DNA from: a virus | Lineage: Duplodnaviria > Caudoviricetes | Reading direction: 5' to 3' (one strand) | Length of the DNA stretch: 43,825 bases | Virus record (IMG/VR): IMGVR_UViG_3300037470_000389 | Location: 1-43,825 of that record | Shown: piece after piece, positions 3,835 to 43,825 of the stretch | How the letters are laid out: each line of letters starts with the position of its first letter | Position numbering within the stretch: position 1 is the first letter of the stretch | Notes under the pieces: model-generated | What the model saw: the letters and a program-made list of their open reading frames with translations, nothing else | What the model was told of the DNA's origin: nothing | Databases searched by the model: none | Position numbers and translations under genes: made by a program

Positions 3835-3902
3835 GGTGTTAGCTCCGGTGTCGTTGGACTAGTGGACCACTGTGCGTTTTCAGTCAAAAATGGCTGAAAC
3901 AT

Positions 3903-3948
3903 TGGTGGGCGGTACTGGACTCGAACCAGTGACCCCTGCGATGTGAAC
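3903..3948 (-). other. attP core: 3' half of tRNA-Val(CAC)
   Basis: Minus strand reads GTTCACATCGCAGGGGTCACTGGTTCGAGTCCAGTACCGCCCACCA (anticodon loop TTCACAT, T-arm ACTGG-TTCGAGT-CCAGT, ACCA); no 5' half; about 10 nt from the integrase stop. Confidence 0.9.
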
Positions 3949-3957
3949 ACTTTGACC

Positions 3958-41616: not shown

Positions 41617-41817
41617 TTAGGAACGTTGGCCTGCGTCTTCAATCCAGTCAGCACGGCTATGACGTGACATCACGCTAACATATCGCTTCCCATATTGGTC
41701 TTCGATGGAGAAATGCTTTTCGACCTCGACAGCGTTACGCTTCGCATACGACTTGGCGCTCGGTCTTGATGGGCAAGTGCCAATTATCTTGCCTTCCATG
41801 TAAACGGTCCATGTCAT
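41617..41817 (-). CDS. Hypothetical protein
   Basis: ATGA coupled to RHH gene. Confidence 0.65.
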   Translation of the reverse strand: MTWTVYMEGKIIGTCPSRPSAKSYAKRNAVEVEKHFSIEDQYGKRYVSVMSRHSRADWIEDAGQRS

Positions 41818-42053
41818 CGCTTCCTCGCTTTCTGACGGCGCTTGATTTCTCGTTCGACGGCTTCTCTCACAAAATCAGTACGGTCCTCATTGGTTTTCAG
41901 GACAGAGGCGATTTGCTCGAAAGTCCCCTCCGGGAATCGAGCTTGCATGTCCTCGGACCATCGTTTTTTCCTGCCCACATGCCTAGGGGTAGCCAAAGGC
42001 GGGGGATTAGTCACCTGATTTTTCTGATATGGGATATTGACCTCGAAACTCAT
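41814..42053 (-). CDS. Ribbon-helix-helix (Arc/CopG-like) regulator
   Basis: MQARFPEGTFEQIASVL...RTDFVREAVEREIKRR; true start may be GTG at 41978. Confidence 0.75.
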   Translation of the reverse strand: MSFEVNIPYQKNQVTNPPPLATPRHVGRKKRWSEDMQARFPEGTFEQIASVLKTNEDRTDFVREAVEREIKRRQKARKR

Positions 42054-42077
42054 ATGAGGTAAGTTATCTCATATCAG
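42024..42077 (+). promoter_or_regulatory. Sigma70-type promoter embedded in inverted repeats
   Basis: TTGACC (42037)-17 nt-TAAGTT (42060); flanked by CTGATATGGGATA / TATCTCATATCAG (13 bp IR, 1 mismatch); internal palindrome CTCATATGAG. Confidence 0.7.
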
Positions 42078-42093
42078 TTATGGAGGCAAGGAG

Positions 42094-42269
42094 TTTCGGC
42101 GGCGGCGTGGAAAGCAGACACGCAGCCTTTAATGAGGCGAGGCCAGCCACCTTTTACAGGGCCGCAGGGGTGAGAAGCGCGACGATCCTGCGTACGGCAC
42201 GATGCCTCTACGGTGAGACCGGGGGACGCGCTCGTTCCCGGAGCCTCAGTAGCGCGAGGCCCGCCGAAA
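42094..42269 (+). ncRNA. tRNA-framed structured RNA, copy A
   Basis: Closing stem TTTCGGCGG/CCGCCGAAA, CG, GCGTG/CACGC arm, internal hairpins, GCCTC-AGTAGCGC-GAGGC arm stacked on the closing stem. Confidence 0.7.
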
Positions 42270-42285
42270 GCTAAACGGGGAACGC

Positions 42286-42462
42286 ATGACAAGGCTTCTC
42301 ATCATCCTGACCATCACCCTCTACGTCCTAGAGTGGAAGGGGAGCCCTATCAGCTTCGACATGACCAAGAGTGAGTGTGACGAAGTGAAAACCGAGATTG
42401 AACGAGAGTCAGGCCCGCTCATAGACCTTTGGTGCTCGCCTGTAGAGAGGGACGTGATCTGA
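42286..42462 (+). CDS. Small protein (58 aa) with hydrophobic N-terminus and two Cys
   Basis: GGGGA RBS; MTRLLIILTITLYVLEW... Confidence 0.55.
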   Translation: MTRLLIILTITLYVLEWKGSPISFDMTKSECDEVKTEIERESGPLIDLWCSPVERDVI

Positions 42463-42473
42463 TGGAGGTTAGA

Positions 42474-42596
42474 ATGAAAGAGATTATCTACGTTGCCCCA
42501 GACGAGTTGCATCGTCCTGGTGGTGGCTCAGGCTGCGCTCCACGCGAAGGCTGGGGCGGCGGCAACCCTGTCCTGTTTAAAGGCCCAGGAGCGTAA
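42474..42596 (+). CDS. Small Gly/Pro-rich protein (40 aa)
   Basis: GGAGG RBS; MKEIIYVAPDELHRPGGGSGCAPREGWGGGNPVLFKGPGA. Confidence 0.45.
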   Translation: MKEIIYVAPDELHRPGGGSGCAPREGWGGGNPVLFKGPGA

Positions 42597-42641
42597 TCCT
42601 ATGACCAAAACCTGTAGCGAACGGATTTAAGGGGGACTGAC

Positions 42642-43040
42642 ATGCCCGTGCCCATGCCCGCAGTCGTTGTTCTGGTGGTGTGCAAAACAATCATCTCAGG
42701 CCCTCCCGATCAGAACGCAGGCTACACGGGATACGAACCAAGGGAGTGGGCCACGGAGCACTCCATGATGATCTGCCGGCGTCTTGAGATCGACGTGATG
42801 GATCAAGCGGAAGCAATGGGAGCCGATCCCCAACCGTTCAATCAACAGCGATGCCAACGCAGCGGAGCGCTGTTAGGTGTCGAATGGGATCAAGCTCATA
42901 GGAGTTCATCGTATAGACATTGGAGATACGCTTGTCCGGTGCCCATTGTGAACACGATCACGAAAGAGATTATTGGCTGGAAAAAACCTGAGTGCGGACA
43001 CCGCGACACGGTACGCTGTGAGGTTGATGCCGAGATATGA
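42642..43040 (+). CDS. Hypothetical Cys-containing protein
   Basis: GGGGGA RBS; six Cys; short hydrophobic N-terminal stretch. Confidence 0.7.
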   Translation: MPVPMPAVVVLVVCKTIISGPPDQNAGYTGYEPREWATEHSMMICRRLEIDVMDQAEAMGADPQPFNQQRCQRSGALLGVEWDQAHRSSSYRHWRYACPVPIVNTITKEIIGWKKPECGHRDTVRCEVDAEI

Positions 43041-43052
43041 AGGAGACTGACA

Positions 43053-43127
43053 ATGGCTTTTAGCATCCCAATGTTTGGCCCAGGCCCAGCAAGCGGCCAG
43101 CCGCGTTACGGCAAGTTCGAAATCTAA
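43053..43127 (+). CDS. Candidate micropeptide (24 aa)
   Basis: AGGAGACTGA RBS context identical to that of the 40883 gene; MAFSIPMFGPGPASGQPRYGKFEI. Confidence 0.4.
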   Translation: MAFSIPMFGPGPASGQPRYGKFEI

Positions 43128-43335
43128 TTGCCGCCCGTGAACCCGAGTTTCGATTACTCGGCAGCTCCACCAATGGGCGCTCCTAGGAAATACGCTAGAG
43201 ATATGTTCCACAACTGTCTCTAGACAACCGATGGTCATGTGCGAGTTGTGGTTAGCGCATGATTGGAGCGTCCTTTAATGGGGCTGAAAAGGTATCGCAC
43301 GGGTAGCAGTCCTGAGCATGACGATAAACTGCTCA
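43127..43335 (+). ncRNA. ssrA: Circularly permuted (two-piece) tmRNA-like RNA / tRNA-Ala mimic
   Basis: 3' piece first: GCCCGTG-AAC-CCGAGT-TTCGATT-ACTCGG-CAGCTCC-ACCA (43133-43172); 5' piece second: GGGGCTG-AAAAGGTATCG-CACGGGT (43280-43304). Acceptor stem has G3:U70 and A73; stemless D-loop; helix 2 pairs across the pieces. Outer ends uncertain. Confidence 0.75.
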
Positions 43336-43419
43336 ATTGAGGCCCTCGGTGAAAGTCCGTTAAGCCATCACTGATGGATGAGGCAGACCAAGTTTCTGAC
43401 AGACCGTGAATCTGTCAGC

Positions 43420-43522
43420 GGATTGCGAGCGACGCGGTGAACCTCCAGGCCGTAGCCTTGGCATTACCCGTTTTCTGCCATGTGCGCCATGCAAGGGAAT
43501 TGGAGTCCTTGCCTCGCAATCC
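43420..43522 (+). ncRNA. Structured RNA, divergent tRNA-framed copy C
   Basis: 10-bp closing stem GGATTGCGAG/CTCGCAATCC with GCAAGGG-AATTGGAG-TCCTTGC arm stacked directly on it. Confidence 0.5.
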
Positions 43523-43528
43523 ATCTAA

Positions 43529-43693
43529 CTGGCGGCGGCGTGGAAGCTAGTTCGCGACAAGACACGCCTGAGAATGCAGCTGCAACGGCGGGTTACTACC
43601 GGGTTGATCACGGTAAACTGGCCGTAAGTGGAACATAGGCCCTGACGGTGCTGCTACCGATTCGGGGAGCCGGGATAGCGTCCGGCCCGCCAG
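43529..43693 (+). ncRNA. tRNA-framed structured RNA, copy B
   Basis: Closing stem CTGGCGG/CCGCCAG, CG, GCGTG/CACGC arm, internal hairpins, GCCGG-GATAGCGT-CCGGC arm; covaries with copy A. Confidence 0.7.
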
Positions 43694-43698
43694 AACTA

Positions 43699-43825
43699 CC
43701 CCTGTATCTGCGTCATCCGAGGCCACTCATGGAACAAACATGGGAAAGCCCATAGAGCGTATCGAGCAAGACTGGCAGATAACTTTAGCTGCCCTTGAAC
43801 GAAACGATTGGGACTGTGCTAAAGC
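43699..43825 (+). repeat. Terminal direct repeat, copy 2 (assembly overlap)
   Basis: Identical to 1-127. Confidence 0.9.

Follow-up and report, generated by a model that had tools for sequence, protein, structure and literature searches.

A 107-nucleotide intervening sequence with complementary hairpin loops in a tagless permuted tmRNA-like gene of a temperate phage

The window, by which we mean the whole 43,825-nucleotide stretch of DNA that was analysed, is one whole circular virus record whose ends overlap by 127 bp. Among its products are an integrase, a repressor, a Terminase_3 large subunit, a portal, a capsid, DNA-ejection proteins and an endolysin, and on the basis of this gene set the source phage is temperate and P22-like. 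A block of RNA domains occupies a stretch of about 650 nt between a 132-codon ORF (42642-43040) and a nuclease-like gene (phrog_704), which begins across the circular junction. The 132-codon ORF is also present in related phages, and the RNA block is absent from the same gene junction in all four (4/4); the block is therefore an accessory insertion. In a comparison of neighbouring genes in five records (L121-L124 and L138), no RNA block adjoined the matched gene, and a search of these records with RF04321 found no permuted tRNA-like domain (TLD). A standard-form tmRNA is borne by G010.

A single contig with a depth of 82, from a sequencing run that is a possible source of the record, covers 42435-43335 with zero differences. 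The assembly is therefore sound, and an assembly artefact is ruled out. A search for sigma-70 promoters in 41800-43825 found none. Elsewhere in the window, the 3' half of a tRNA, which we read as tRNA-Val, adjoins the integrase (around 3900-3950, minus strand); its best match in a plasmid collection is 85%, and it is probably attP.

The features of the central part of the block, with their main sources of evidence, are as follows.

43127-43172, plus strand: acceptor piece of the permuted tmRNA-like TLD (Rfam, precursor fold and controls)
43127-43139, plus strand: P2 3' strand, followed by an AAC linker
43143-43161, plus strand: T arm, with a 6-bp stem and a 7-nt TTCGATT loop
43162-43168, plus strand: acceptor 3' strand, followed by discriminator A43169 and the encoded CCA (43170-43172)
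43173-43279, plus strand: intervening sequence (IVS), 107 nt, a three-way junction (folding, motif check and Rfam placement)
43175-43183 with 43265-43273, plus strand: IVS closing stem, 9 bp including one G-U (folding)
43195-43223, plus strand: hairpin 1, 9 bp, with an 11-nt loop at 43204-43214 (motif check and precursor fold)
43233-43264, plus strand: hairpin 2, 8 bp plus two G-U pairs, with a 12-nt loop at 43243-43254 (folding)
43280-43310, plus strand: TLD 5' piece (Rfam, precursor fold and controls)
43280-43286, 43287-43297 and 43298-43310, plus strand: acceptor 5' strand, D loop and P2 5' strand, respectively
43311-43335, plus strand: short hairpin
43331-43363, plus strand: the only resume-like frame, AQLRPSVKVR-stop, without the ...AA end of a degradation tag

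At the gathering level, Rfam had no match anywhere in the window, and ARAGORN reported 0 genes and called no tmRNA. The stretch 43143-43297 aligns to RF04321 (tmRNA_permuted) with 30.4 bits (E 7e-4), which is below the gathering score of 47. The alignment spans model positions 36-104 of 213 and places 107 nt between the CCA and the acceptor 5' strand. The elements follow one another in the permuted gene order, i.e. T arm, acceptor 3' strand, CCA, IVS and acceptor 5' strand, with P2 joining the two pieces, and the precursor fold contains a 7-bp acceptor stem and a 12-bp P2 at probabilities of 0.86-1.0. The RF04321 placement and the precursor fold identify the 107 nt as the IVS of a permuted tmRNA-like gene, as a preliminary description of this DNA had proposed. 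That description also had the spacer excised, which agrees with what the available text of PMC11915505 and PMC3985003 reports for this gene form: the mature RNA no longer contains the IVS (PMC11915505), which is probably removed by RNase P and tRNase Z (PMC3985003).

The comparison set was drawn from scans of viral, metagenome and genome sequences (119, 1, 6 and 36 loci) and consists of permuted tmRNAs whose spacers measure 85-115 nt. Once matches without the T arm and D-loop word had been removed, 74 distinct IVSs in 44 clusters remained, the window included, and this control set is biased by its own search pattern. Alanine identity is kept in the window gene, with G3-U70 (G43282-U43166), A73 (A43169) and CCA at 43170-43172; the U at position -1 pairs with A73. 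The leader ends in TAAT, which fits the T[GA]AT end of 28/43 controls. The elbow departs from the controls. Its T stem has 6 bp, a length found in none of the 43; the linker reads AAC versus GAC in 42 of them (the remaining one is cut by a contig end); and the D loop reads TCGCA, without the TCGA that is present in 43/43. No tag frame ending in ...AA-stop occurs in the three frames of 43300-43540; such a frame is found by a crude pattern in 39/43 controls and is of the AND/ANN type in 36/43. As a tmRNA, then, the gene fails on tag, elbow and score, and its spacer is an IVS by position. Since it is tagless and has a changed elbow, and the elbow of the TLD is where SmpB binds according to the accessible part of PMC3968760, the locus is probably not a working tmRNA.

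The minimum free energy structure of 43173-43279 is a three-helix junction at -41.5 kcal/mol (z -4.26, equalled by 0/200 shuffles), and in the precursor context of 43121-43315 the pairs of the quoted helices have probabilities of 0.90-1.0. The closing stem and two hairpins that had been described earlier are thus borne out, and all eight of the sequence motifs quoted for them lie where they were placed. The closing stem is flanked by single-stranded letters, 2 nt on the 5' side and 6 nt on the 3' side; hairpin 2 is stacked on it with zero linker, and the remaining junction linkers are 11 and 9 nt long. The earlier argument that the RNA is read from the plus strand also stands: all five non-Watson-Crick positions in the IVS are G-U on that strand, and the plus strand folds better than the minus strand (-41.5 versus -32.8). 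A coding explanation was rejected, the overlapping ORFs having no PHROG match and the IVS containing no ORF of at least 20 residues that starts with ATG. An Rfam scan of the IVS itself gave no match.

Much of this architecture is shared with the controls. A closing stem occurs in 42/43, beginning 0-2 nt past the CCA and ending 4-6 nt before G1; at least two internal hairpins occur in 31/43 (exactly two in 17/43), and z is -4 or lower in 14/43. Because these features are so frequent among the 43 controls, the size, closing stem and branching of the window IVS are ordinary for long IVSs and do not mark it as special. The match between the two hairpin loops does. When all were tested in one way, the best loop-loop match was below 4 bp in 33 controls, 4 bp in six and 5 bp in four; the window IVS has 7 bp, and none of the 43 exceeds 5 bp. 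This kissing complementarity is the only unusual feature of the IVS fold and is rare among its peers. The preliminary view that the sequence is more elaborate than a disposable spacer holds for the kiss (0/43 above 5 bp) and is overstated for the three-way junction.

The loop-loop match consists of seven Watson-Crick pairs (43208-43214 with 43245-43251), so the exact complementarity claimed earlier is confirmed. Its quoted length of 7-8 bp is fair, an eighth pair being available if A43203-U43215 opens. What we describe is complementarity, and neither a prediction of pairing nor a probing result; pseudoknots lie outside the ViennaRNA model. Freeing the kissing loop costs 2.2 kcal/mol. At least seven loop-loop pairs arise by chance with a probability of 0.005 when letters are shuffled within the loops, or 0.0014 for random loops, and the resulting p of about 0.003 is post hoc because the feature was chosen for looking special. 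The locus is the sole one with at least six pairs among 233 + 157 redundant adjacent-hairpin registers on both genome strands. An inverted duplication was ruled out as the origin of the match, the complementarity being confined to the loops. Antisense targeting of phage mRNA was also rejected: matches to the loops reach only 8-9 nt, in about the number expected by chance.

Homologues of the IVS were sought in several ways. A blastn search of phages and plasmids gave no relative, nor did a viral pattern scan covering 61/64 parts (119 loci). Further viral pattern scans returned 0 loci, or one locus that is an ordinary phage tmRNA; the metagenome scan returned six, five being tmRNAs with tags or canonical elbows and one a chance match; and none of the 36 loci from the genome scan resembled the window IVS. 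Such pattern scans pick up only loci with exact words and a spacer of 85-115 nt, and diverged relatives could escape them. A single-sequence covariance model run on the window and 177 loci found self matches only. In 401 genomes, searching by DNA gave one chance match, in a coding region, and searching by pattern gave 0 matches; a covariance model over 151 and 5 genomes or records, run without a positive control, found nothing. With no IVS homologue found, there is no covariation for the IVS.

The only trace of a relative is a 151-nt contig of depth 2.6 from the probable source run, which matches 43127-43183 with four other letters. Past 43183 it has a shorter linker and keeps the hairpin 1 words GCTAGA and GTTCC; the would-be kissing letters are changed, and the second loop lies outside its coverage. 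The contig fits a conserved fold with a covarying kiss and, equally, a kiss that was not kept. Because the relative differs at the kissing letters, the kiss may not be conserved.

The slot between the two TLD pieces can hold cargo, as indicated by the control IVSs and by nearby structures. Among 71 distinct IVSs (a set that includes that of the window), 30 contain an ATG-to-stop frame of at least 20 residues. In 26/71 there is a strongly hydrophobic, conserved-looking ORF of 28-32 codons, with a purine-rich leader, right after the CCA; 22 of the 26 are exactly 30 codons long. Differences among these mini-ORFs fall mostly at third codon positions (1799, versus 1204 at first and 769 at second positions), as pairwise counts among close relatives that are not independent. 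Phage IVSs with such a mini-ORF include L003, L004, L007, L008, L011, L013, L054 and L087 (e.g. L004:1515-1604, minus strand). Two of the peptides were looked up in a protein collection and were absent from it, and comparison with PHROG gave one faint match (E 0.04). The mini-ORF likely encodes an unannotated small membrane peptide made from a tmRNA spacer. Published examples of IVS inserts are a tRNA gene and a repetitive element (available text of PMC11915505).

The nearby structures are two tRNA-like shells with inserts and a further domain.

42094-42269, plus strand: tRNA-like shell A, of the same family as shell B with another insert
43420-43522, plus strand: separate multibranch domain with a perfect 10-bp closing stem
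43529-43693, plus strand: tRNA-like shell B

Shell B comprises an acceptor-like stem, a D-like hairpin, a structured insert and a T-like arm, without CCA. The inserts of shells A and B are structured and unrelated to each other, and both lie within 1.1 kb of the IVS. The same shell is found in six further loci (L125, L126, L130, L175 from Ochrobactrum phage POI1126, L176 and L177); the family occurs in proteobacterial phages, with a GTAGCG-type loop in the T-like arm and no CCA; an Rfam scan of the shells in L125, L126 and L130 gave no match. The multibranch domain has a possible 5-bp loop-loop match of its own (43443 with 43501), and by our motif reading T-loop-like words occur at 43420-43522 and 43350-43356. 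The IVS segment 43202-43211, which overlaps the kissing segment, is a perfect 10-bp complement of the shell B linker at 43628-43637. A low-depth contig (2.8) from the same run carries 249 other letters in place of 43336-43698, and the part downstream of the TLD is therefore exchangeable. Other contig joints skip parts of the RNA block, which suggests module exchange among co-occurring phages.

Our preferred explanation, to which we give slightly less than even credence, is that the 107-nt IVS in its tagless permuted tmRNA-like shell forms a processing cassette that would release a pseudoknotted small RNA. The reading is plausible and is drawn from one sequence. The locus would be transcribed from the plus strand and the TLD would fold; host RNase P would then cut at 43279/43280 and a tRNA 3'-end nuclease just after the CCA, so that the freed IVS would have an exact 3' end and a 5' end somewhere in 43173-43175. 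A 13-bp acceptor-plus-T helix could disturb RNase P cutting. Once released, the IVS is predicted to fold up as a compact three-way junction, held shut by the 7-bp loop-loop helix, and, being pseudoknotted, would resist decay and persist as a small RNA. We infer transcription, processing of the deviant shell, kiss formation and stability; the role that we favour for such an RNA, protein binding, is the weakest step and taken by itself looks improbable. A cassette had been suggested in the preliminary description, and the tagless, deviant TLD, the neighbouring shells with inserts and the mini-ORFs elsewhere speak for that part of the suggestion; a ribozyme product has no support. More broadly, and more tentatively, phages may have adapted the permuted tmRNA shell for use as an expression cassette, in which the tag has been dropped, the tRNA-like ends serve only to recruit host tRNA-processing enzymes and the spacer is the product, here a kissing-loop RNA and elsewhere a mini-mRNA for a 30-residue hydrophobic peptide.

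A more conventional account, which strikes us as rather unlikely while deserving serious weight, is that this is an ordinary IVS whose stem unites the TLD ends for processing and whose spacer is then degraded. The loop match would be chance or would tighten the precursor, and the product would be an alanine-chargeable tagless TLD serving, in the manner of the phage DS6A TLD, as a decoy that draws off SmpB or the ribosome. The same closing-stem geometry in nearly all controls, the 14/43 that fold as well by z-score and the altered kissing letters of the only relative seen all favour it, as does the report that the DS6A TLD-only RNA inhibits host tmRNA, perhaps by titrating SmpB (parts of PMC4131195 and PMC11915505). 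Loop complementarity beyond that of any control, with a chance of 0.1-0.5%, counts against the match being incidental, and the decoy function is weakened because the elbow, where SmpB binds (accessible part of PMC3968760), is altered at letters that essentially all controls keep. Less probable again is a larger RNA assembly over 43127-43693, in which loop 1 would have two alternative partners: loop 2, through a kiss in cis or in intermolecular rings like those of the phi29 prohead RNA (pRNA), or, after a switch, the shell B linker. The block does fold as four abutting domains, the 43202-43211/43628-43637 duplex is worth -13.0 kcal/mol compared with -10.3 for the 8-bp kiss, its target is mostly unpaired (0.39-0.98), the conditional p for the 10-bp match is 0.005, and the depth-2.6 relative keeps GTTCC, the core of that match. 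Set against this, 7.7% of shuffles contain a perfect long-range 10-mer somewhere (unconditional p 0.077), cofolding the IVS and shell B brings no gain (-112.7 in both cases, in a model that cannot form loop pairings), and the depth-2.8 contig replaces 43336-43698, leaving the downstream part exchangeable.

The two remaining accounts are both very improbable in our judgement. One is a functional two-piece tmRNA whose unusual tag, AQLRPSVKVR, would not lead to degradation and whose IVS is incidental: the gene keeps its alanine identity elements and CCA intact, and the GCT codon at 43331 follows an A-rich run, but the frame lacks the AND/ANN...AA pattern found in most controls, the elbow letters deviate, ARAGORN calls no tmRNA and the low-depth variant diverges at 43336, within the tag-like frame. 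The other is a decaying tmRNA pseudogene with a functionless spacer, which would account for the sub-threshold Rfam score, the lost tag and the changed elbow; the acceptor, T, P2 and IVS helices are nevertheless intact, the departures in the IVS are G-U only, and the relative retains the acceptor piece although its upstream flank differs.

Among known systems, the closest is the IVS of two-piece permuted tmRNAs (RF04321, RF01849; available text of PMC11915505), which likewise lies between the CCA and G1 of a permuted TLD. In the phage and alphaproteobacterial controls, it shares a length of 85-115 nt, the closing stem and the leader; the window departs from it by the 7-bp loop complementarity, the missing tag frame and the altered elbow. 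TLDs that lack a tag have been described in mitochondria and in phage DS6A (parts of PMC11915505 and PMC4131195). The TLD-only tmRNA of mycobacteriophage DS6A and the tagless mitochondrial permuted tmRNA (RF02544) resemble the window gene in having a tagless alanine-type TLD, and that of DS6A is also phage-borne. The DS6A tmRNA is described as little beyond a TLD, and the available text of PMC4131195 mentions no permutation or IVS, whereas the window gene is permuted, contains a structured IVS of 107 nt and lies in an array together with further RNA domains. In the literature searched, we found no case of a permuted, tagless phage tmRNA and none of a structured, retained tmRNA IVS, although the permuted alignment in the supplement to PMC11915505, a source available in part, may hold comparable IVSs.

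Other RNAs are similar in topology only. In the SRP Alu domain, as set out in the accessible part of PMC4231752, two hairpin loops pair across a three-way junction (5 bp in B. subtilis, 3 in human), a likeness to the loop-loop helix for which the window has complementarity, and the strand linking the two kissing hairpins contains UGU. The connecting strand in the window (9 nt, ACAACCGAT) is without UGU, and there is no helix 5, S domain or Rfam SRP match. Membership in the SRP Alu family therefore failed: UGU is absent and the IVS is not part of an SRP RNA. The prohead RNA of phi29 is of similar size to the window IVS. It too comes from a phage and combines a three-way junction with loops that are complementary, but it kisses between molecules and serves a phi29-type motor (available text of PMC4201828). 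The window phage instead has a Terminase_3 large subunit and a P22-like portal/capsid module, and with no phi29-type motor and no sequence or Rfam match, the IVS is not a phi29-type prohead RNA. Hammerhead ribozymes and purine riboswitches similarly combine three helices with a loop-loop contact, which in the window is a complementarity. The hammerhead core has CUGANGA and GAAA around the junction. CUGANGA is absent from both strands of the IVS, GAAA occurs once, at 43187, and Rfam gives no match, so the ribozyme option raised earlier finds no support; the UCUAC junction word of purine riboswitches is likewise absent.

Annotation passes over the IVS of two-piece tmRNAs, which is regarded as a linker to be thrown away. 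Should phages load cargo into it, a second product with defined ends may lie hidden in every permuted tmRNA-like gene, and the slot would be nature's counterpart to expressing RNAs in a tRNA scaffold. With its compact fold, the 107-nt RNA would be an easy target for structure determination and for ligand or protein capture. Even if the spacer is disposable, the tagless permuted TLD is an undescribed phage variant.

Two side observations concern the variety of IVSs. The locus L132:983-1106 is a complete permuted tmRNA with a T arm that is 88% like that of the window; its 101-nt IVS is very stable and has two hairpins, with a 6-nt palindrome in each loop region, and its loops are possibly self-kissing. 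In a group of alphaproteobacterial genomes (L140, L147, L156, L158, L159, L161-L163, L170 and L172), the IVSs of the chromosomal permuted tmRNAs have recurring short hairpins in common, in shuffled order.
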